From assembly GCA_009015555.1 (NCBI GenBank), contig GCA_009015555.1_3613.1: a DNA stretch of 64,000 nucleotides; one strand, written 5' to 3'. Below, one piece after another: positions 14,538 to 59,024 of this stretch; the stretch's first letter is position 1; the number at the start of each line of letters is the position of its first letter. The notes under the pieces are model-generated. The model had not been told where the DNA came from. It saw only the letters and a program-made list of their open reading frames with translations, and did not search any database. The DNA comes from a phage. Made by a program: the position numbers and the translations under genes.

Positions 14538-14996
14538 TCAATCGTTTTCGAAAGCATTTAATGCCTGAAGCTCTTTCCAGGCGGCAATCCATGCCTGCTT
14601 TATCTTGGCGTACTCTTTAGGATGAGCAACTTCCAGTAATCGAAGCTCGTCCCGAGTTACGTGCCTGTCGTCCTCGAAGAACTCCATAGCCTCATCAGAG
14701 AGGTAAGCCGTAAAGACGATCTCTTTGAACTTTATCGTCCTGTTCCTCGACGTCGGAGGATCTACGATGACCTGGGTTCCAGTTGTTGTGATAGTCGGGG
14801 CCGGGGTATTCATGACCTCCCTCATAATCCTTTCCCACTCCCGGGCCTTGATATCGGACGGGGAGGGGGTCCAAGGTTGGTGAATGTTCGGCGGGATGTT
14901 GCCATCCCCAATTCTCCACGGCCCGCCAATCCCAGTTGTCTCATTACCCATCAATGAAGAATTGATGTGTTCCTTCAGGCTCTTATGTTCACTCAT
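14538..14996 (-). CDS. paralog family member (Gly-rich N-terminal part; C-terminal ...KQAWIAAWKEL)
   Basis: Track ORF; shared motifs with neighbours. Confidence 0.55.
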   Translation of the reverse strand: MSEHKSLKEHINSSLMGNETTGIGGPWRIGDGNIPPNIHQPWTPSPSDIKAREWERIMREVMNTPAPTITTTGTQVIVDPPTSRNRTIKFKEIVFTAYLSDEAMEFFEDDRHVTRDELRLLEVAHPKEYAKIKQAWIAAWKELQALNAFEND

Positions 14997-15435
14997 TTGG
15001 CATCATCTCCCCTAAATCAAAGGCTCGGTACGCCTGGCGTTTGTTCCACTCTTCCGCCCAAGCATCCCGGATCGATTTCCACTCGGACTCATCCACCACC
15101 TTGATAAAAGAAAGTTCGTCCCCGTTCAATTGGGTAGCATCATCAATCATGGCAAAGGTTTCTGGTTTCAAGCGGACCTTGAATGCAAGCCCGGCATACG
15201 ATAAAACATAAAGCTCTGTGCAGATACCCATAGGCCCAGGTGTCCCGCACACCCCGGACACCCCCATATCCCCTCTTGGTCCCAACATCCCATTTACCCC
15301 CATCACAACCCCGGTAGTTGCGTCGTAACGCAGTTCGTTCAACTGCGCCGCCCTCAGTTCATCATTAGCGCTTCGCTTTTGGCCCATTGAATTTCTCCAG
15401 CAACAGTTTATCGGCTTCGTCCAAAGCCCCAGCAA
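14989..15435 (-). CDS. paralog family member with collagen-like tract (GVNGMLGPRGDMGVSGVCGTPGPMG)
   Basis: Track ORF; WAEEW motif; start uncertain. Confidence 0.5.
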   Translation of the reverse strand: MLGLWTKPINCCWRNSMGQKRSANDELRAAQLNELRYDATTGVVMGVNGMLGPRGDMGVSGVCGTPGPMGICTELYVLSYAGLAFKVRLKPETFAMIDDATQLNGDELSFIKVVDESEWKSIRDAWAEEWNKRQAYRAFDLGEMMPNE

Positions 15436-15838
15436 AGAGAGGCACCATTGGGGAAAGATCTGCGTACAGCATCTCGAACATCGCCACCTCTCCTTCGTCC
15501 ACGTTGTGCGTGTCTAAGAAGATTTCTTCAATAGACAGACGTTCGGTATCTCCTCGCCCAAAGGCATGATAAACCAAACGATCACCCTTCTCAGGGCAGG
15601 TTCTCCACTGAAGAAGGCCACTCATGCTCTTAGTCCACAACCGCAGGTCCCCGTTCTTCATCTCGTGACGCATGGTAAACTCCCGGACGGTATTCGGCCC
15701 GGTGGGGACTTCGATAGTCAAACCTCGGAACTTACCTTCCAACTTGGTCACTACTTGGCGTCGAACAGGATCATCCATAACGGCCTTCCAACTCCAATCC
15801 CGAGCCAGCCTCTCAATTACATCTTTGATTTCACTCAT
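15365..15838 (-). CDS. paralog family member (motif EVAMFEMLYADL)
   Basis: Track ORF. Confidence 0.55.
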   Translation of the reverse strand: MSEIKDVIERLARDWSWKAVMDDPVRRQVVTKLEGKFRGLTIEVPTGPNTVREFTMRHEMKNGDLRLWTKSMSGLLQWRTCPEKGDRLVYHAFGRGDTERLSIEEIFLDTHNVDEGEVAMFEMLYADLSPMVPLFAGALDEADKLLLEKFNGPKAKR

Positions 15839-16359
15839 TATTTATCCTTCGTTGGGAAAAATACAGACAGGGTATTGGAACCCGCCGCCTTATCGAGTTT
15901 TCGGGTGACGCCGAAGAACTCCCGATTCATATCTATGAGCATTTGCTCGTCGCCGTAAAGCATCTGGAACATATCCAACTCTTCAAATGTCGGACGCCAA
16001 GGGTCGTCAAACATCTCCGATAAATGAGTCTTTACACCGTCACACTCGTAAGTGCAGGAGTTTTCAGTGACTACCAATCTGGCCCGGAGACCTTTTATGC
16101 CAATGCCGGGGATCTCTATGCTCGCCAGATCTCCTGTCTCAGGGTCGATATTCGCCTTTACCATCTTGTCCATCTCCCAAGAAGAATCCATCTTGGTTTT
16201 GAGGTAGAACGAGGCCCGGCTGTCTATATCTATCCCTCTCTCCACCCGATGCTCAAGGAACTTGAAGAAAACTTGGTGTTTCAGCCAGTGGTTCCACCCG
16301 ATCCAGCGAGCACCCTGCCCAAATACCTCACGGGTAATTTCTTCTTGGCTTTTTCTCAT
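15838..16359 (-). CDS. paralog family member (motif ELDMFQMLYGDE)
   Basis: Track ORF. Confidence 0.55.
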   Translation of the reverse strand: MRKSQEEITREVFGQGARWIGWNHWLKHQVFFKFLEHRVERGIDIDSRASFYLKTKMDSSWEMDKMVKANIDPETGDLASIEIPGIGIKGLRARLVVTENSCTYECDGVKTHLSEMFDDPWRPTFEELDMFQMLYGDEQMLIDMNREFFGVTRKLDKAAGSNTLSVFFPTKDK

Positions 16360-16834
16360 AGTAGTCTAACTCCCACTCGTCAAATTCTTCTTTGGCCCTT
16401 TCGATTGCCCACTTTTCCGCCCACTGCTCCCTAAACGCTTTAAATTCATCCGGATAAGTCATCTGGAAGAATGCCATATCCTCCTTGGTGAGGGCATACT
16501 GGTTAAAGAAGAGAGCCTTTATGTCCTCTTCTGAATATAATGTAACCGAAATTCCCTTCCAGATCAACTTGGATTCGATAATTTCTTTCGGCGGTTCGTA
16601 TGATCCGCTGTGACCCATCGGTCCTCCCGGCGCACCTAAGTTTGCCCAACTCCCGTGCATCCACATATACAGAACACCCCCGATGATATAGGTGTCGCCG
16701 TGGTTTGCCGTCAAGGGTAGATTGGTCACTGATTGCAATGACCCTTGTATCACCATATTTTGTGTCGCAGCAGGGAAAAGGCCGGGAGACGTTGAATACG
16801 GGTTAGATACATTACCAGTGTTAAAATTTGCCAT
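16328..16834 (-). CDS. paralog family member (GAPGGPMGHSGS; EDMAFFQMTYPDEFKAFREQWAEKW)
   Basis: Track ORF. Confidence 0.55.
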   Translation of the reverse strand: MANFNTGNVSNPYSTSPGLFPAATQNMVIQGSLQSVTNLPLTANHGDTYIIGGVLYMWMHGSWANLGAPGGPMGHSGSYEPPKEIIESKLIWKGISVTLYSEEDIKALFFNQYALTKEDMAFFQMTYPDEFKAFREQWAEKWAIERAKEEFDEWELDYYEKKPRRNYP

Positions 16835-16881: not shown

Positions 16882-17325
16882 TTATCCAAAGAACAGCACG
16901 ATGACTGTCACAATGGCGTATACCGCCGCCCCGGCAATGAGAATCATTCCGAATGGCTTGCGTGTGAAGCGCTTTAGACGAGCGAACAGGGAGTTTCTTT
17001 TCTTATGCTCTACAACAAGATTCTTGCAGAGTGTCAGGAAAGAATTGATCTCTCCGGCATCGCCTGTCATAGCGAATGGAGTGTGCTTCAACTCTCCGGG
17101 GTTCGGGACTGCAATCGGCCCAGATGGTGTTTCCACAACCATGCCGCGCTGATTTACCCGGTAAGTAACCCCTCGGATCTTATCTTCAAGGACGTATGCC
17201 CTGAATCCCCAAAGATCGGCCTTGGCCCGGCGGATAGATCCGCACGAGTAATCCAAGCGATCCCCTCGGATCAGATCGAGGTTACCCTCTACCATCGGAA
17301 GTTGACGAACGTATGCGTAAAACAT
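16882..17325 (-). CDS. hypothetical protein with C-terminal transmembrane anchor
   Basis: Track ORF; RBS GGGAGGAAGG; C-terminal GMILIAGAAVYAIVTVIVLFFG. Confidence 0.55.
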   Translation of the reverse strand: MFYAYVRQLPMVEGNLDLIRGDRLDYSCGSIRRAKADLWGFRAYVLEDKIRGVTYRVNQRGMVVETPSGPIAVPNPGELKHTPFAMTGDAGEINSFLTLCKNLVVEHKKRNSLFARLKRFTRKPFGMILIAGAAVYAIVTVIVLFFG

Positions 17326-17530
17326 AGCCTTCCTCCCGTTGTAAGATTCCGCACAACCATTTTACCATGTTATGCAAAAATACAACAGAAGACTCTTGAC
17401 AAAGTTGCCATGTTGTCATTTTACACAACAAATTCTCCGCTTCACATTTAAATTGCTAAAATCTATTTTAATACATCGAAAATGCCTATCGTCGGGATCT
17501 GGTCAATAGGCATAACCTTGCAATGAATTT

Positions 17531-18124
17531 TTAGTCAAAAGTCGTTTCACATTTATGCTGGAAACGTTCCAGTGCGATCGAGGTCCTTGGCTCCGCCAAT
17601 CCGGTCCCGTAAACATACGATTTTCCGGTCATGGTTTTACGCACACCGTATGATCCGAGTTCCAGATCTTCGTACATGACGTCGAACCCGTCCTCTGTCT
17701 CGATCACCTCTGTAGGCAGTGCATAAAACTCCCTCAGAAACTTCTGCATCTTCCCGGCGATCCACAGTGCATCCGTCCGGGTGTAGAAGTTGCTGTCATC
17801 ACTCAGCTTCATGAGTTCCAGTTTCAGGAACACAGGTAAGTGAGTTTCGTCAAGGATCGGCTCGTCACGGTAGCAAGGGGTCAACGCCATCCAACGCCCT
17901 GGTTTAAGTTTGCCCTCTTTCTCCAACTGGAGAAAAGATTGCTCCGCCGAGGCAACAACAGTATCCGGATATTTACCGTACAGGCGGGAATCATGTACGC
18001 CCGCCGGGCAGGTGTGAGACATAACATCCGGGTCTACAAGGGCCGGGACCTTTTTGGTCTCAAACCAAAGCCCCCACCAGTTAATCGCGTCACGTACCAG
18101 TGCCAAGTTCATAGGATATTTCAT
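17531..18124 (-). CDS. hypothetical protein with class-II aminoacyl-tRNA-synthetase-like motifs (tentative)
   Basis: Track ORF; motif-2-like CYRDE..HLPVF and motif-3-like GTGLAEPR; function unverified. Confidence 0.5.
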   Translation of the reverse strand: MKYPMNLALVRDAINWWGLWFETKKVPALVDPDVMSHTCPAGVHDSRLYGKYPDTVVASAEQSFLQLEKEGKLKPGRWMALTPCYRDEPILDETHLPVFLKLELMKLSDDSNFYTRTDALWIAGKMQKFLREFYALPTEVIETEDGFDVMYEDLELGSYGVRKTMTGKSYVYGTGLAEPRTSIALERFQHKCETTFD

Positions 18125-18125
18125 A

Positions 18126-18386
18126 TTACCCCCTGTGCCCGTTTTCGAATACTCGGCGGGTAATGCCGGAGAACTTTTTCAGGTCTTCCATCTTGAACCC
18201 CGGGTAGTTTTCCTCCAAGAATCCTTGCATGGCCCCGTAAAGATCAGACATCTCGACAAGAATCATGACGTGACTGCCCTGACGGTGTGCATCGACCAGT
18301 TCCTCGACCTCCTCTTGAATCTTGCCGAGAGATCCGAAACGGCGCTTTTCTATTTTGTCCAGATGATAACCAGGTTTATCTTGCAC
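18126..18386 (-). CDS. MazG/HisE-like all-alpha NTP pyrophosphohydrolase (tentative)
   Basis: Track ORF; EEVEEL...EMSDLYGA pattern. Confidence 0.45.
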   Translation of the reverse strand: MQDKPGYHLDKIEKRRFGSLGKIQEEVEELVDAHRQGSHVMILVEMSDLYGAMQGFLEENYPGFKMEDLKKFSGITRRVFENGHRG

Positions 18387-18395
18387 TTTCTCCTC

Positions 18396-18896
18396 CTATG
18401 GGCAGCAGCGCGGCCCTCCACCACAATAATATTGCCAGCTTCTACCCCCGTGGTAGTTTACTGGCCCTGCTCTCTCACACCCTGACCCGCTGCACCCCTC
18501 TTCCATAATGTGGTAGTCGATGGAACATGAGTGTGGATGGTCCAGCATATCGAGGATCTCAAAACAAAGTCCTCTCAACCATATAAAGTGATTATGCTCG
18601 CATACCTCCAACAAGTCAATCTCTTGTTTTGTCGGTTTTGCCGGATTCTCAAAATACGGGTATGATTTCCATCCAGTAATGACATGGATAACCTTACCGT
18701 CCTTTACCTCATAATCCACGCTCTCAACCAGCCTGATCGAAACCTCTTGGATTACCTCTGTGCAACTTGATCCGTAATCAGGATTTGCCTTCCCTGTGCG
18801 AATGTTTTCCTCTATCCAAGAGATAACCGGGCTTTTGGCCCGGTGTGTATCGACAGACAGGAGATGCGCCATTCTCCCGTTAGTCATTGTGACCAT
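18396..18896 (-). CDS. Cys/His-rich hypothetical protein
   Basis: Track ORF; CEHNH, HPHSC, CSGSGC, CGGGPRCC clusters. Confidence 0.5.
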   Translation of the reverse strand: MVTMTNGRMAHLLSVDTHRAKSPVISWIEENIRTGKANPDYGSSCTEVIQEVSIRLVESVDYEVKDGKVIHVITGWKSYPYFENPAKPTKQEIDLLEVCEHNHFIWLRGLCFEILDMLDHPHSCSIDYHIMEEGCSGSGCERAGPVNYHGGRSWQYYCGGGPRCCP

Positions 18897-20008
18897 GCAG
18901 CATCCTGTACATTGAGGATCAGTTCTTCCGCCAATCGCTTGTTGCTGTTCTTCGGCAGCTTACTCTCGTGGTAGAGAACTTCACGGATCAGTTTGTCCTT
19001 GTCCGATGCCCACTCAACGATGTCCTCGTAACTGTGGGTTCCGTTACGAATGCCCAGCAGTTCCTCTGCGTCCGGGCGGCGAACGATGACCTGCCCCGTT
19101 TCAAGGATTTCCTGTCCCATACGGAGCAGGCGCACCAAGTGCATGGCGTGTTTGGTGTCGTAACCGAACTTCTCCTCCAGCTCATGCCGGGCGGCGTTAC
19201 GGTTCTTCACCCACTGCCAGTAGTTGTGGTGCTTATCCTTGGCAACCGTGTGATCCTGACGAAGATATTTAACGATGAACAACGGCGGCTGCTTTTTCAC
19301 AGACTCTGGGATCTCATCGTACTGCAATTTACGGATCGACCCGTCGGGGTTGAACATCGGCCCAACATCTTCACGGTGGTCCGGTACTACGCCATAGATG
19401 TCCGCCCCGAACGGCACCAACGTGCAGACACCCTGCATATTGTTCAGCTTACGCATGAAGTCTTCGTGCTTCAGCACCTTCACGTCGAGGTAGCTCTGTA
19501 CCAAACGGAAGAACTCAAGTTGGGTCGGCTTTTCTTCCGGCATCGGGTTGTTGATATGCTTGTTGTGACCCTTGATGCGTTTCAACTGCGCCATCGCATA
19601 ACCGCCGAAGCGGTAGGCCACGTTTTTGTTCAGCAGTTGCGGCAGGAAGGACTTCAAATAGTCCCACGCCGGATGCTTGTACAGAGTCGCCTGATCATCA
19701 GTGAAGCCCAGTTCAATGATATTTGGGTTCATGTCGCAGAACAACTCCATGAAGTTGTTCAGTTCGTAAACCTTTCCATCTTCCTCGTCCTCGATCCCCA
19801 TCTCACGGAGGGTTCGGAAAGGTGCCCGGATTACTCCCGGGCGGGCAACGATGATGCCACGAATATCAGTGTCGCTAGTCGGCGTCGCCGTCCCATACGC
19901 ATGAGATCCTGCGAGACATAGCATCAGCACCTTCGATACGTCTTTGTGACTTTCCAGCTTCTCGACGATGCTTTTTACCCTTCCATTTGTCACAATGGTA
20001 TTTTCCAT
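18884..20008 (-). CDS. nucleotidyltransferase-fold protein (Pol-beta superfamily signature GS..G...SDTD)
   Basis: Track ORF 18884..20041; start at in-frame ATG (MENTIV). Confidence 0.6.
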   Translation of the reverse strand: MENTIVTNGRVKSIVEKLESHKDVSKVLMLCLAGSHAYGTATPTSDTDIRGIIVARPGVIRAPFRTLREMGIEDEEDGKVYELNNFMELFCDMNPNIIELGFTDDQATLYKHPAWDYLKSFLPQLLNKNVAYRFGGYAMAQLKRIKGHNKHINNPMPEEKPTQLEFFRLVQSYLDVKVLKHEDFMRKLNNMQGVCTLVPFGADIYGVVPDHREDVGPMFNPDGSIRKLQYDEIPESVKKQPPLFIVKYLRQDHTVAKDKHHNYWQWVKNRNAARHELEEKFGYDTKHAMHLVRLLRMGQEILETGQVIVRRPDAEELLGIRNGTHSYEDIVEWASDKDKLIREVLYHESKLPKNSNKRLAEELILNVQDAAWSQ

Positions 20009-20095
20009 TAATCCTCCAGTCGTGCAAATCACAGAGACCAACCCATCCGGGCTTTTTCACCCGGATGAAACTGTCACAGTTAGTACAGTCTTTTG

Positions 20096-20497
20096 TTACA
20101 GACATTTTACCCCGTAGAAAATCAGAGCGATCACCATCCCGGTTGTGTAGATTGCACCGAAGACGTGCTGACCGTAAGTGTACGTTTTCGCCTTGCCTGC
20201 ATTGGCAATGCCCAAGATATAGCTAACGATGATCGATGCCCAGTGTACAATCATGATGCCGAGGCTCAGTGCGCCAGGGGACCAAATGTACAGCGAGTAC
20301 GAAAGGTACGCTGCAAAGATACCCATCAAAGTTTTGAAGAGAAGAGACCCGGCACCTAACGTTCGCTGTTCGAACTTCAACGCCTCCGGCTTAATGCTTT
20401 CCAAGAAGAGCATCAGACCCAAGCTGATTACATTCAGGCTCGCGCCCAAGCAGAAGATTACCATAAGAACGATGTACTGCCAAGTTGGTGCCAACAT
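20096..20497 (-). CDS. integral membrane protein (4 TM)
   Basis: Track ORF; hydrophobic. Confidence 0.5.
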   Translation of the reverse strand: MLAPTWQYIVLMVIFCLGASLNVISLGLMLFLESIKPEALKFEQRTLGAGSLLFKTLMGIFAAYLSYSLYIWSPGALSLGIMIVHWASIIVSYILGIANAGKAKTYTYGQHVFGAIYTTGMVIALIFYGVKCL

Positions 20498-55477: not shown

Positions 55478-55553
55478 GCTGGATTAGCTCAGTAGGTAGA
55501 GCGCCTCACTTGTAATGAGGATGTCGCGGGTTCGATTCCTGCATCCAGCACCA
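55478..55553 (+). tRNA. tRNA-Thr (anticodon TGT)
   Basis: Cloverleaf by hand: acceptor GCTGGAT/ATCCAGC, loop CTTGTAA, T-loop GGTTCGATTCC, encoded CCA. Confidence 0.8.
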
Positions 55554-55559
55554 GATCAT

Positions 55560-55636
55560 GCAACGTTGCCGGAGTCTGGTAACGGCTCTCGCTGCAAACG
55601 AGATGAGCACTGGTTCGAATCCAGTACGTTGCTCCA
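55560..55636 (+). tRNA. tRNA-Cys (anticodon GCA)
   Basis: Acceptor GCAACGT/ACGTTGC, loop CTGCAAA, T-loop GGTTCGAATCC, CCA. Confidence 0.8.
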
Positions 55637-55637
55637 A

Positions 55638-55714
55638 GCGCCTTTGGTCCAATTGGTAGAGGCACTACATTCAAAATGTAGGGGTTCCCAGTTCGAATCT
55701 GGGAAGGCGCACCA
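55638..55714 (+). tRNA. tRNA with Leu anticodon CAA but short (5-nt) variable arm; identity uncertain
   Basis: Acceptor GCGCCTT/AAGGCGC, anticodon stem CTACA/TGTAG, loop TTCAAAA, T-arm CCCAG-TTCGAAT-CTGGG, A73, CCA. Confidence 0.55.
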
Positions 55715-55730
55715 AAATTTATGTAACCTA

Positions 55731-55759
55731 TTGACATAGTGTAATTATACTGCTAATAT
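55731..55759 (+). promoter_or_regulatory. sigma70-like promoter (TTGACA-17-TAATAT)
   Basis: Consensus -35, good -10, upstream of ORF 55786. Confidence 0.5.
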
Positions 55760-55785
55760 GGATACACTAATTCAATGGGGGCATT

Positions 55786-56160
55786 ATGAGCAAGGCTGCG
55801 ATTGTAACTCGTAAGCGTGGTCGCCCAAGCAAAGAAGAGAGCACAGCAATCGCCCTTGAAAAGGCAATGCTTGATCTCCGAGGCGAATTGGCCCGTCTGA
55901 CGCCGAAGGCCATTCATACTCTCGAAAACCTGCTCACAACAGGCACAGAGAAAGTGAAGGAAACCACGGCGAAGTATATCCTTGAGCAGGCGAAAGAGGT
56001 TAACAACCTCTATACTGAAGAGGATAACGAAGACGACGCAGCAGGCGGCACAACATCTGCCTCTTCTGAAACTCACGCTGGTTCTTCTGACGAGATGAAA
56101 AATGCCATCCCGTTGACAACCCAGATTCGTGAGTATAAAGCAGTAGGCGAAGATGATTAA
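55786..56160 (+). CDS. small basic/acidic protein with AT-hook-like RKRGRPSK motif
   Basis: Track ORF; own promoter and terminator inside tRNA cluster. Confidence 0.55.
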   Translation: MSKAAIVTRKRGRPSKEESTAIALEKAMLDLRGELARLTPKAIHTLENLLTTGTEKVKETTAKYILEQAKEVNNLYTEEDNEDDAAGGTTSASSETHAGSSDEMKNAIPLTTQIREYKAVGEDD

Positions 56161-56163
56161 CTG

Positions 56164-56190
56164 GAAGGCTCCCGAAGGAGCCTTTATTAG
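56164..56190 (+). terminator. rho-independent terminator
   Basis: AGGCTCC-CGAA-GGAGCCT then TTTATT. Confidence 0.5.
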
Positions 56191-56325
56191 AAGTTCTCTT
56201 TTGACGGGCACTTGTTAACGACCCGCAGAATGACGACGGTGTACAACGGCGTTTGATGGCGAGGAAGGTCTATAGGGATCAGCGCAGATCCTTGGATGTC
56301 AGGTGAGCCGTACAAAAGAGAATTT

Positions 56326-56413
56326 GGGGAGTTATTTCCGTAGAGGTAGCGGTGCAGACTGTAAATCTGTTGTCATTGCGACTCGGGTGGTTCGACTCCA
56401 TCACTCCCCACCA
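56326..56413 (+). tRNA. tRNA-Tyr (anticodon GTA), long variable arm
   Basis: Loop CTGTAAA, variable arm GTCATTGCGACTC, T-loop GGTTCGACTCC, CCA. Confidence 0.8.
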
Positions 56414-56419
56414 AATTAT

Positions 56420-56514
56420 AGTAGGATGGCTGAGTGGCTTAAAGCAGCATCTTGGAAAGGTGTCGGATCAGGTAACCCCTGGTCCCGGGAGTTCAAATCT
56501 CCCTCCTACTGCCA
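56420..56514 (+). tRNA. tRNA-Ser (anticodon GGA), type II
   Basis: Acceptor AGTAGGA/TCCTACT, D-loop GAGTGGCTTAA, loop TTGGAAA, long variable arm, CCA. Confidence 0.75.
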
Positions 56515-56518
56515 GACC

Positions 56519-56595
56519 GGATCGTTAGCTCAATTGGTTAGAGCAAGGGACTTTTAATCCCGAGGTTCGGGGTTCGAGTCCCTGACGGTCCACCA
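56519..56595 (+). tRNA. tRNA-Lys (anticodon TTT)
   Basis: Acceptor GGATCGT/ACGGTCC, loop CTTTTAA, T-loop GGTTCGAGTCC, CCA. Confidence 0.8.
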
Positions 56596-56760
56596 GAAAG
56601 GAAGAGGGTCCAAGCTGGTAATGCGAGAGGCGAGTCCTCAGACCAAAGCCCAGATGGAGGCCACCCTAAAGTCGTCCAACCGAAGGTCCCTGATTGAGTA
56701 ATACTTCCCCGCTTGTCGGGTACAGTTCTCAGTCACACCGGAAGGGGCGCACCCTATAAT

Positions 56761-56836
56761 TGACGGTGAGCATATAAGGACATGCGGGGGCCTGTTAAGT
56801 CCAGGATAGCTGGTTCGAATCCAGTACCGTCAGCCA
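56761..56836 (+). tRNA. tRNA-Asn (anticodon GTT)
   Basis: Acceptor TGACGGT/ACCGTCA, loop CTGTTAA, T-loop GGTTCGAATCC, CCA. Confidence 0.75.
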
Positions 56837-56945
56837 ATTTGGTTCCGACAAGGTGACGGCGCACCCCGGAGCGACGCTGAAAGATGCAGGCCGACGAACA
56901 CATACGTGTACTTAATCAATAGTCATTGCGATGGCTATTCGTTAA

Positions 56946-57023
56946 GTCCTGGTAGACAAACTGGATAAAGTCACCACCCTTTCAAGGTGGGGTTTGAGGG
57001 TTCGATCCCCTCTCAGGACGCCA
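56946..57023 (+). tRNA. tRNA-Glu (anticodon TTC)
   Basis: Anticodon stem CCACC/GGTGG, loop CTTTCAA, T-loop GGTTCGATCCC, CCA. Confidence 0.75.
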
Positions 57024-57117
57024 ATCTTTTAGGTCGGTAGATTAATGAGCAAAGGCCGCTCGCTGGATTCCAACCCCAGTTCAAGGCGTTCGATTCGTCA
57101 CCTTCCTGCCAAATTCA

Positions 57118-57193
57118 GGTCCTATGGTATTAGCGGTAAACATACTCGCCTGTCACGCGAGAGTCACGGGTTCGAATCCCGTTAGGACCGCCA
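57118..57193 (+). tRNA. tRNA-Asp (anticodon GTC)
   Basis: Acceptor GGTCCTA/TAGGACC, loop CTGTCAC, T-loop GGTTCGAATCC, CCA. Confidence 0.8.
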
Positions 57194-57200
57194 CTTCAAA

Positions 57201-57275
57201 TGGGGATTAGCTCAGGGGTAGAGCGCACAACTGATAATTGTGAGGTCGGTGGTTCGAAACCACCATCCCCAACCA
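57201..57275 (+). tRNA. tRNA-Ile (anticodon GAT)
   Basis: Acceptor TGGGGAT/ATCCCCA, loop CTGATAA, T-loop GGTTCGAAACC, CCA. Confidence 0.8.
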
Positions 57276-57345
57276 AACAGCCCCTCCCGGGATTGGACCG
57301 GGTTAACGGCAATCGCACACTGAGGCGTCTTCCGGGGGAACAATA

Positions 57346-57422
<77 letters not shown>

Positions 57423-57428
57423 AATTAT

Positions 57429-57503
57429 TGCGAGGTAGTTCAGCGGTAGAACAGGGGTTTCATACGCCTCATGTCGGCAGTTCGATTCTGCCCTTCGCAA
57501 CCA
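57429..57503 (+). tRNA. tRNA-Met (anticodon CAT; initiator/elongator/Ile-lysidine not resolved)
   Basis: Acceptor TGCGAGG/CTTCGCA, loop TTCATAC, T-loop AGTTCGATTCT, CCA. Confidence 0.7.
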
Positions 57504-57509
57504 AATCAT

Positions 57510-57587
57510 GCTCCAGTAGCCCAATTGGTAGAGGCACTTGATTTAGGATCATGTCAGCGATGAGTTCGAATCTCTCCTGGAGTACCA
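57510..57587 (+). tRNA. tRNA-like gene with Leu anticodon TAG, short variable arm and weak T-stem; identity uncertain
   Basis: Acceptor GCTCCAG/CTGGAGT, D-arm CCAATTGGTAGAGG shared with 55638 tRNA, loop TTTAGGA, A73, CCA. Confidence 0.45.
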
Positions 57588-57593
57588 CATAAA

Positions 57594-57667
57594 GCGGGCA
57601 TGGTATAGTGGTTGTGCCTTAGCCTTCCAAGCTAATGAGTCCGGTTCGATCCCGGATGTCCGCTCCA
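57594..57667 (+). tRNA. tRNA-Gly (anticodon TCC)
   Basis: Acceptor GCGGGCA/TGTCCGC, stem TTAGC/GCTAA, loop CTTCCAA, T-loop GGTTCGATCCC, CCA. Confidence 0.8.
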
Positions 57668-57740
57668 ATTCACGGTGAGTCACTGCCGTTAAGTGTGAAG
57701 TTAAAAATGCCCGTGGTGATCGGGTTATCTCACCCAGTGT

Positions 57741-57816
57741 AGGGGATTAGTTTAATTGGTAAAACATCGGGTTTTGATCCCGACATCGCGAGGTTCGAAT
57801 CCTCCATCCCCCGCCA
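57741..57816 (+). tRNA. tRNA-Gln (anticodon TTG)
   Basis: Stem TCGGG/CCCGA, loop TTTTGAT, T-loop GGTTCGAATCC, CCA; 1-72 is A-C mismatch. Confidence 0.7.
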
Positions 57817-57898
57817 CATTAATGCTCATTAGCTCTTGTCAGTGGAACTCGAACCCTTAGAGCAGGCGACACAGACGTGTGTTTTAGTGAGCATCAAT

Positions 57899-57974
57899 GT
57901 GGCCTTAATTCAGCAGGTAGAATCCCCGGTTGTGAACCGGGCAGTCGTGGGTTCAAGTCCCACAGGTCACCCCA
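57899..57974 (+). tRNA. tRNA-His (anticodon GTG)
   Basis: Acceptor GTGGCCT/AGGTCAC, stem CCCGG/CCGGG, loop TTGTGAA, C73, CCA. Confidence 0.8.
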
Positions 57975-57978
57975 ATCT

Positions 57979-58071
57979 GGAAGATAGGGCGTAGTGGTAC
58001 GCACCCGGATTTGAACCCCGGCCCGCTGTGGCGACCCCACGGTGATAGTTCGACTCTATTATCTTCCGCCA
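57979..58071 (+). tRNA. tRNA-Ser (anticodon TGA), type II
   Basis: Collinear with bacterial tRNA-Ser(UGA): acceptor GGAAGAT, loop TTTGAAC, long variable arm, ...TTCC-G-CCA end. Confidence 0.7.
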
Positions 58072-58092
58072 CCCCTGATCATAAGGCAAACT

Positions 58093-58785
58093 ATGTTAGA
58101 AATGTTAACAGTGGGTAAATACACCCCTAGTCCTATAATTTCTAGCCCTATGGATGCTTATTTTGAGGGCGAGAGGAATAATAAATACGGCACTGTTGAG
58201 TGGGTTGTTCCTCAAGGCGTCACCTCAATCTGCTGTGTAGTGATAGGCGCAGGATCTTCTGGCAGAAGCGGCGGTCTTTCTTGGAGAAACAACATTCCAG
58301 TTACACCTGGTGAAAAACTTAAAATGCAGGTTAACTCCACAGCCAGCGCCCTCTTGAGAGAGACAACTATCCTTTGTGCTGCCCAGTGTGGCGGCAACGG
58401 AGGAAAAACATATAACTCTGTGAACGACGGTGGAGGCAATGCTGGACAATCACCACATGGTAGAGGTGGTGCTGGCGGCTACACCGGGAATGGTGGTGAT
58501 GGGCATACGTTCACAGGTGGTCCAGGACCAGGGTCCCCAGGTTCAGGTGGCGGCGGCGGCGGAGGCGCAGTTGTGTATCTGAACGGATCATTGACACCAA
58601 CTGTCTGCGGCGGAGTCGGCATGTATGGACAGGGGTCGAATGGTGGCGCTGATAACAGCGCCGGATATCCAGGCTCCGGCGGTTCTGGAACAAGATACGG
58701 AAGAGCAGTCGATGGTTATGGTGTTGTCAGGGTTGTGTGGGGAAATTATTCATTCCCAACAAATGCCCCGAGACCGAAATCCTGA
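58093..58785 (+). CDS. glycine-rich repeat protein (GGxGG tracts, poly-Gly run) embedded in tRNA cluster
   Basis: Track ORF 58042..58785; start at ATG after AAGG just downstream of tRNA-Ser. Confidence 0.5.
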   Translation: MLEMLTVGKYTPSPIISSPMDAYFEGERNNKYGTVEWVVPQGVTSICCVVIGAGSSGRSGGLSWRNNIPVTPGEKLKMQVNSTASALLRETTILCAAQCGGNGGKTYNSVNDGGGNAGQSPHGRGGAGGYTGNGGDGHTFTGGPGPGSPGSGGGGGGGAVVYLNGSLTPTVCGGVGMYGQGSNGGADNSAGYPGSGGSGTRYGRAVDGYGVVRVVWGNYSFPTNAPRPKS

Positions 58786-58856
58786 TAGGGATGGTCCCTA
58801 CGAGGATCGTCTTTTGCTCAGTGGTACTCAGCATTTACTTAGTATTCAAACAATAT

Positions 58857-58943
58857 AGAAGAGTGGCGAAATAGGTAGCCGCACCGGACTGCTAATCCGG
58901 GGTCCTTCGGGGCCTGAGAGTTCAAGTCTCTCCTCTTCTGCCA
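58857..58943 (+). tRNA. tRNA-Ser (anticodon GCT), type II
   Basis: Acceptor AGAAGAG/CTCTTCT, stem CCGGA/TCCGG, loop CTGCTAA, long variable arm, CCA. Confidence 0.75.
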
Positions 58944-58948
58944 AGCAT

Positions 58949-59024
58949 GGAACTGTAGCTCAGTTGGTAGAGCGGTTGCCTGAAGAGCAGCGCGTCAGCG
59001 GTTCAAATCCGTTCAGTTCCACCA
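58949..59024 (+). tRNA. tRNA-Phe (anticodon GAA)
   Basis: Acceptor GGAACTG/CAGTTCC, D-arm TAGCTCAGTTGGTAGAGC, loop CTGAAGA, T-loop GGTTCAAATCC, CCA. Confidence 0.8.

Follow-up and report, generated by a model that had tools for sequence, protein, structure and literature searches.

A minimal class II synthetase-type core resembling seryl-tRNA synthetase, and its MazG/HisE-like partner in large phages

The window analysed here, a 64,000-nucleotide stretch of phage DNA (GenBank assembly GCA_009015555.1, contig GCA_009015555.1_3613.1), carries on its minus strand two adjacent small genes, the downstream one encoding a protein that resembles the catalytic core of class II aminoacyl-tRNA synthetases (aaRS; the core protein hereafter) and the upstream one a protein that resembles pyrophosphohydrolases of the MazG/HisE type (the partner). 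The window is that of a CR3-like Certrevirus, the 3.3 kb around the core gene being 97.8% identical to Cronobacter phage CR3 (Certrevirus, Vequintavirinae), where the gene product CR3_gp191 bears the RefSeq name "histidyl tRNA synthetase"; the core protein matches PHROG 4806 with E=6.5e-77, and this PHROG is also labelled histidyl tRNA synthetase. The 197-residue open reading frame (ORF) reported in the original prediction, which did not state a strand, exists on the minus strand with an ATG start.

17531..18124, minus strand: aaRS-like core gene, 197 aa plus stop, ATG start (CR3_gp191, PHROG 4806)
18126..18386, minus strand: partner gene, MazG/HisE-like, 86 aa (PHROG 6408), directly upstream of the core gene
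18129..18134, minus strand: Shine-Dalgarno-like AGGGGG run, 5 nt ahead of the core ATG and within the final codons of the partner gene

A single nucleotide separates the stop codon of the partner gene from the ATG of the core gene, and the AGGGGG run is seen in the reverse complement ...CACAGGGGGTAATATGAAATAT...; its position inside the 3' codons of the partner gene suggests that the translation of partner and core is coupled. A scan for promoters and terminators in 17200-20300 found no more of them than in shuffled sequence and provides no operon boundaries.

Profile, fold and motif comparison show that the core ORF encodes a class II catalytic core of aaRS type, about 190 residues long, which derives from seryl-tRNA synthetase (SerRS) and keeps motifs 1-3. 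A PDB search with a profile of 44 diverse homologues returned SerRS chains at E=2.7e-6 to 5e-4, while the pyrrolysyl and aspartyl enzymes (PylRS, AspRS) reached only about 0.006-0.009, and hhalign aligned core residues 17-143 with residues 185-335 of E. coli SerRS at a probability of 92.7%. Against Pfam, tRNA-synt_2 is matched by 21 of the 44 homologues, tRNA-synt_2d by 15 and tRNA-synt_2b (weakly) by 3; for the core protein alone, the match to tRNA-synt_2d is under the gathering score (E=0.002), NCBIfam yields weak matches to pheS and the PylS C-terminal domain below their cutoffs and no match to serS at E<=1, and a single-sequence search of PDB sequences gave a chance thioredoxin match only (E=0.62). 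An AlphaFold model of the core, computed from the 44-sequence alignment, is confident and compact (pLDDT 92, pTM 0.88) and contains the class II antiparallel β-sheet catalytic fold flanked by helices. Its structural neighbours include HisZ, AsnA, EpmA/GenX and the amino acid:[carrier protein] ligases (Bll0957); the closest full-length synthetase in a viral structure library is a giant-virus SerRS, and SerRS of bacterial, archaeal and eukaryotic type outscore the methanogen type. The predicted-fold check proposed with the original prediction, in which an unrelated fold was to count against it, spoke for the prediction, and the view of the protein as a class II paralogue, too small for a full synthetase and not a housekeeping enzyme, holds. 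Of 1.84 billion cluster representatives, 1174 are matched with E<=1e-30, and relaxing the cutoff to E<=1e-3 raises this number to no more than 1652, so that the family is discrete and stands well apart from genuine synthetases.

Conservation, taken from the 44-sequence homologue alignment with identities down to 34%, leaves 23 positions invariant, and these map to the active site. The relevant segments of the gene are the following.

18035..18106, minus strand: motif 1 region, residues 7-30, a helix (7-17) followed by a strand with the near-invariant P27 (at least 90%)
17942..17950, minus strand: S59-A-E61, equivalent to T237-A-E239 of E. coli SerRS, the serine-binding TxE; S59 and E61 invariant
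17828..17875, minus strand: motif 2, C84-Y-R86-D-E88...H95-x-x-x-F99; R86 and F99 invariant, E88 and H95 in at least 90%
17816-17824, minus strand: K101 and E103 after motif 2, both invariant; F99-x-K101-x-E103 equivalent to F287-x-K289-x-E291
17639..17662, minus strand: strand E155-L-G-S158-Y-G-x-R162, equivalent to SerRS E355-I-S-S358 (metal/ATP site)
17585..17611, minus strand: motif 3, Y172-G-T174-G-L-A-E-P-R180, equivalent to N389-G-S391-G-L-A-V-G-R397 of E. coli SerRS

Motif 1, in class II enzymes the dimer-interface motif, is represented by a region that aligns with residues 185-200 of E. coli SerRS ('ENYVPYLV'). The motif 2-like CYRDE...HLPVF and motif 3-like YGTGLAEPR on which the original prediction was built are both in the translation (C84-Y-R-D-E88 with H95-L-P-V-F99, and Y172-G-T-G-L-A-E-P-R180); the codons of 17828-17875 were also read directly on the DNA and encode CYRDEPILDETHLPVF. 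In the alignment with E. coli SerRS, TPC-Y-R86-D-E88 corresponds to TPC-F-R268-S-E270 and H95xxxF99 to R283xxxF287, the motif 2 loop of the core being 6 residues shorter. Towards the C-terminus E155, G157, S158, G160 and R162 are invariant, as are T174, A177, E178, P179 and R180. In the complex of E. coli SerRS with a seryl-adenylate analogue, T237, E239, R268, E291 and S391 are reported to contact the seryl moiety, and the conserved block of motif 3 is reported to end with R397 (bioRxiv 10.1101/586255). The phage counterparts of all six residues are invariant; by this comparison, the core keeps a complete serine/ATP site with every residue that holds the seryl-adenylate in E. coli SerRS. Absent are the means by which SerRS picks out tRNASer. 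The protein starts 6 residues ahead of the motif 1 helix and thus has no N-terminal coiled coil, the arm with which SerRS recognises the long variable arm of tRNASer and brings its acceptor end to the opposite subunit (PMC10817482).

The most informative feature of the locus, the partner gene directly upstream, was absent from the original prediction. Its product probably belongs to the all-α NTP pyrophosphohydrolase superfamily of MazG and HisE. It matches Pfam PRA-PH at E=0.0012 (19.6 bits, gathering cutoff 21.3), and 34 of 39 members of the partner family match the same model at E<0.1, the best at E 3.8e-4 and all below the curated thresholds. Across the 39 sequences Y7, H8, K22, E25, E26, E29, E45 and D48 are invariant, and E25/E26/E29...E45/D48 corresponds to the EExxE...ExxD metal-binding signature of MazG/HisE-type pyrophosphohydrolases. 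In its small size, helical build and acidic motif the partner is similar to MazG, HisE/PRA-PH and the dimeric dUTPase superfamily; it differs from MazG/HisE in the invariant Y7-H8 within an N-terminal 'GYH', in K22 and in a basic C-terminal 'TKRAFxxGxR'. The idea that the partner might stand in for the coiled-coil tRNA arm was rejected, as its helices measure 16-21 residues and the acidic metal motif is invariant. PADLOC gave no match for the core, the partner or the cysteine-rich ORF that lies farther upstream.

The pairing of core and partner extends far beyond the window. An upstream gene with a weak PRA-PH match is also present in the mutually unrelated phages alia, Acinetobacter PhT2 and Caulobacter CcrColossus. 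In a set of 84 viral loci (80 IMG/VR contigs and four phage records), a partner homologue lies on the same strand in 81; the two genes mostly overlap by 4 nt or are at most 30 nt apart, one pair is fused, and both gene orders are found. Conversely, when four partner proteins from a separate search were taken as the starting point, the core gene was adjacent in all four, and four further annotated phages also carry the pair, which brings these further loci to 8/8. Scanned independently, 185,579 species genomes yielded only 23 core loci, 22 of them on contigs of metagenome-assembled genomes (MAGs) and the remaining one on a 775-bp contig of an isolate assembly; the partner accompanies the core in 21 of the 23, in six as a fusion. 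Overall, core and partner stand side by side or form one ORF in about 110 of 115 loci from 73 lineages at 60% identity. A conserved third component was rejected, as no other gene occurs in more than seven of the 73 lineages.

In natural fusions only 5-8 residues separate the motif 3 helix from the N-terminal GYH of the partner, and the AlphaFold (AF2) model of one of them is confident as a single body (pLDDT 91, pTM 0.85), with the partner domain predicted as three helices of 16-21 residues each. The fused form predominates on the MAG contigs L088, L090, L091, L093, L098 and L099, which are labelled Woesebacteria, Woesearchaeota, Saccharibacteria and Nanoarchaeota and some of which measure 0.2-0.9 Mb. 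These contigs, binned with the Candidate Phyla Radiation (CPR) and DPANN, may stem from huge phages that were mis-binned, or the copies on them may be genuinely cellular or belong to prophages.

With only 23 loci in the species genomes, all but one on MAG contigs, the core family is essentially viral and almost restricted to large phages. tblastn finds the core protein in 273 phage records, the carriers including Vequintavirinae, phi92/phAPEC8-like phages, T4-like Acinetobacter and Providencia phages, giant Caulobacter/Brevundimonas siphoviruses and Microcystis phages, and the records label it histidyl-tRNA synthetase, seryl-tRNA synthetase, RNA polymerase alpha-CTD protein or hypothetical protein. 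One record names it 'RNA polymerase alpha subunit C-terminal domain protein', and this name goes back to an N-terminal helix-hairpin-helix domain like the RNA polymerase alpha-subunit C-terminal domain (alpha-CTD) which phiCbK-like phages carry on the core (Pfam E=3.1e-6).

L004 3692-4546: alpha-CTD-like/core fusion, gp133 of Caulobacter phage CcrColossus; a like fusion is present in Erythrobacter phage L02 (H60)

Some core homologues have Zn-ribbon-like C-terminal tails; the occasional extra domains of the family are of a nucleic-acid-binding type. Pfam recognised no extra domains in ten length-extended members of the core or partner family, whose N-terminal extensions may be over-called ORFs.

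Upstream of the pair, the same string of minus-strand genes continues in the window with two further genes.

18396..18896, minus strand: Cys-rich protein, 166 aa (PHROG 12113), with C-terminal C-x-G-x-G-C...NY...CGGGPRCCP
18884-20041, minus strand: RlaP-type ('RNA repair pathway') nucleotidyltransferase of the pol-beta family, 385 aa (Pfam E=1.3e-17, PHROG 388)

The Cys-rich tail occurs as a separate ORF in Certrevirus-like loci only (L001, L005-L009), and the same tail also forms the C-terminal end of the fused aaRS-like homologue P0063 (235 aa). The 166-residue protein is a lineage-specific neighbour outside the universal module and may be an accessory or a Zn-binding module. The relatives CR3 and LTH01 carry, in addition, a gene for a CCA-adding tRNA nucleotidyltransferase a few kb farther upstream. 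Compared with CR3 and CR8, the window is without the approximately 660 bp of CR3_gp194 ('virion structural protein'; L001 11094-11699), whose site is near 18896 between the Cys-rich ORF and the nucleotidyltransferase gene; the megablast match to CR3 is in two pieces, spanning 3961 bp in CR3 and 3301 bp in the window. Phage PBES 02 is colinear with the window in this region. Downstream, at 14989-16834 on the minus strand, four successive ORFs of 148, 157, 173 and 168 aa resemble tandem paralogues with a common C-terminal '...F.ML(Y)...' segment, two of them with collagen-like G-x-x runs and matches to tail-fibre PHROGs. A cluster of 18 tRNA genes occupies 55478-59024 on the plus strand and includes tRNA-Ser GGA, TGA and GCT with long variable arms.

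Elsewhere, the gene pair keeps varied company. Genes of dNTP synthesis surround it in several phages: a T4-like Providencia phage carries it between frd and td, an Acinetobacter phage has it among nrdC/nrdH, and ribonucleotide reductase genes adjoin it in alia, PsgM04F and RXM. Contexts of RNA repair and translation are represented by the CCA-adding enzyme and RlaP nucleotidyltransferase of Vequintavirinae and by genes for IF3, KTSC and RNA ligases in other phages. In phi92/phAPEC8-like phages the core gene is directly followed by a gene for a 144-aa YqeY-like protein of the GatB-tail, tRNA-binding type, which is annotated 'tRNA amidotransferase' (gp075 of Escherichia phage alia, L002 4586-5020), and no equivalent was seen beside the module in the window. 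On one contig (L116, SRR20702428) the pair is found among NADAR, Nudix, ADP-ribosylglycohydrolase and R2K ATP-grasp genes, and on another (L115, Logan ERR3663001) between a phosphoribosyl pyrophosphate-synthetase-like gene and a FolD-like methylene-tetrahydrofolate dehydrogenase/cyclohydrolase; these two contexts possibly hint at nucleotide, one-carbon or NAD-ADP-ribose chemistry. All such surroundings are common in the auxiliary regions of large phages and do not decide the function.

The interpretation preferred here, to which about even chances are given, is that of a two-part phage enzyme in which a seryl-AMP-forming core acts in complex with a pyrophosphohydrolase on an acceptor outside canonical tRNASer recognition. 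In this proposal the core would bind L-serine and ATP and form seryl-AMP and pyrophosphate, as the conserved residues suggest, and would be physically associated with the MazG/HisE-like protein. The seryl or the adenylyl group would then pass to an acceptor chosen otherwise than by canonical tRNASer recognition. A nucleotide or the end of a nucleic acid is the most plausible candidate, and the partner would hydrolyse the substrate or product of nucleoside-triphosphate type in this reaction. Candidate purposes are the control of nucleotide pools or alarmones, chemistry at RNA or tRNA ends, and counter-defence. A more far-reaching version is put forward only tentatively and is regarded as doubtful: an undescribed viral enzyme which directs seryl-adenylate chemistry to a nucleotide-type acceptor or nucleic-acid end and not to conventionally selected tRNASer, with which large phages that infect very different hosts would control nucleotide signalling, nucleotide pools or immunity of the host. 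Its reactions might be the making or destroying of an aminoacyl- or adenylyl-nucleotide of the Np4N or alarmone type, or the modification of an RNA or tRNA end. A role in DNA hypermodification is unlikely, as the carrier phages have unrelated DNA chemistries.

Several observations weigh against the two-part enzyme. The C-terminal equivalences of the core (E155/S158 and T174/R180) are short motif matches beyond the reach of the hhalign alignment and its statistics, that of E155/S158 being made by eye. Foldseek comparison of the model of a fusion homologue with the PDB returned synthetase cores only, headed by the compact PylRS, and was uninformative on the helical partner domain; the fold alone hence does not decide the subfamily, which the sequence does. 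The assignment of the partner to MazG/HisE draws on sub-threshold matches: the PDB profile search with the partner family gave E=0.09-0.4, including the structure 1vmg of the MazG-like SSO3215, and the hhalign comparison of the partner profile with E. coli MazG was not significant. The activation of serine is read from residue conservation alone, and the intact active site would equally fit ordinary tRNA charging if a tRNA-binding partner exists. Finally, the gene contexts diverge between dNTP synthesis, RNA repair and translation, and NAD/ADP-ribose metabolism.

Ordinary charging is the core of the first rival, in which the protein is a working SerRS subunit that charges host or phage tRNASer by means of a borrowed tRNA-binding surface, either in a heterodimer with the host SerRS or with a trans-acting protein. 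Both the serine/ATP site and motif 1 are intact, the arm of one SerRS subunit serves the active site of the other, and SerRS2-alpha with SLIMP sets a precedent for such a division of labour (PMC10817482); in addition, three of the 18 tRNA genes in the window are tRNASer genes, and the YqeY-like gene of alia, the CCA-adding and RlaP genes of Vequintavirinae and the IF3, KTSC and RNA ligase genes of other phages point in the same direction. Yet these tRNA-related neighbours are conserved in few lineages only, and the near-universal MazG/HisE-like partner with its fusions is left unexplained. With hosts from enterobacteria to cyanobacteria and some CPR/DPANN-labelled contigs, the interface with the host SerRS would moreover need to be generic; the motif 2 loop, the contact to the acceptor stem in SerRS, is shortened, and the protein stays below every curated synthetase cutoff and matches no serS model. 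This explanation is considered unlikely. It is quite unlikely that the core is a ligand-sensing regulatory subunit, which, by analogy, might sense serine, ATP or tRNA and switch a hydrolase acting on dNTPs, NTPs or alarmones. HisZ, a HisRS-like protein, regulates HisG, and GCN2 detects uncharged tRNA through its HisRS-like domain, but known regulatory paralogues such as HisZ have lost the catalytic residues, whereas in the phage core the motif 2 and motif 3 arginines and the metal-site residues Glu155 and Ser158 are invariant as well.

A seryl ligase that works without tRNA on a protein or on a carrier thiol or amine is very unlikely in turn; it could be imagined by analogy with EpmA, which acts on EF-P, and with the amino acid:[carrier protein] ligases, which act on phosphopantetheine. 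An inactive remnant of a captured SerRS gene without a function of its own is hardly credible. In favour of a relic stand the very small size of the protein among class II enzymes and its Pfam and NCBIfam scores below threshold, but the conservation pattern already contradicts this reading: the 23 active-site positions are invariant down to 34% identity, the family counts 1174 representatives at the strict threshold with a confident compact model, and synteny and fusions have been kept across 73 lineages.

A functional study of the core family or a description of its pairing was not found in the literature, where only annotation-level mentions occur. In the paper on Citromicrobium phage RXM, g121 is assigned to protein synthesis as a SerRS, while g118 and g119 appear in another place as MazG, and two comparative surveys of the Aravind group, on jumbo phages and on NAD/ADP-ribose systems, do not describe the core-partner pair. 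The pairing with a fixed partner is a new result which has apparently gone unnoticed before. Many of the 273 phage records name the gene "histidyl tRNA synthetase" or "seryl-tRNA synthetase", and in genome papers it is counted among the translation genes; on the evidence above the core alone can be neither, and the gene is mis-annotated. To our knowledge, the core (about 175-200 aa) is the smallest natural class II synthetase-type core, and it would be the smallest such catalyst. A minimal natural core that seemingly retains only the amino-acid and ATP site bears on the minimum size of a working synthetase-type enzyme and on the recruitment of synthetase cores to new chemistry, and the family is virus-restricted, comprises more than 1000 sequence clusters and is widespread in large phages. 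Should the product prove to be a signal linked to a nucleotide, or an RNA end in modified form, phage host takeover or counter-defence would gain a new kind of activity; with the fusion conserved, the question is open to a direct test on two small soluble proteins.

Set beside named systems, the core is neither a HisRS nor a self-sufficient SerRS, as both database names fail their defining tests. HisRS identity was rejected, since neither membership of a HisRS-specific family nor a C-terminal anticodon-binding domain was found. With E. coli SerS it shares the catalytic fold, motifs 1-3, the TxE motif, the 'TPC(F/Y)R.E' and 'F.K.E' strands and 'G(S/T)GLA..R', whereas it has 197 residues against the 430 of SerS, lacks the coiled-coil arm, the equivalent of SerRS residues 100-180 and the C-terminal tail, and belongs to an essentially viral family coupled to a MazG/HisE-like protein; canonical SerRS (EC 6.1.1.11) was rejected for the missing tRNA-binding arm and for scores under the curated serS and tRNA-synt_2b cutoffs. 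A natural precedent is the SerRS2-alpha/SLIMP pair of protostome mitochondria, in which a SerRS catalytic subunit without the arm relies on a partner subunit, SerRS2-alpha being catalytic and arm-less and SLIMP catalytically dead and arm-bearing (PMC10817482). However, SLIMP is a SerRS paralogue that keeps the arm, while the phage partner is an unrelated, all-α, pyrophosphohydrolase-like protein with short helices and no coiled-coil arm.

HisZ, AsnA, EpmA/GenX and Bll0957 resemble the phage core as stand-alone class II cores which have no anticodon- or tRNA-binding domain and a task outside translation. They differ in their parents (His, Asp/Asn, Lys and methanogen-type Ser), in their length of about 275-330 aa and in that none is paired with a MazG/HisE-like protein; HisZ, in addition, is non-catalytic, whereas the catalytic residues of the phage core are invariant. 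HisZ identity was accordingly rejected, also because no hisG-like gene is conserved nearby, and so was membership of the Bll0957-type ligases, as no carrier-protein gene is conserved beside the core and methanogen-type SerRS scores lower. Of the original suggestion of an amino-acid ligase, an AsnA/EpmA-like enzyme or a tRNA-modifying paralogue, the general idea of a non-canonical class II paralogue holds, while the AsnA/EpmA-like identity falls, since neither a derivation from AspRS/AsnRS or LysRS nor a match to the corresponding family models was found. The phage protein is thus no new fold or kind of protein, as stand-alone class II paralogues are already known; what is new is a minimal core tied to an unexpected partner.

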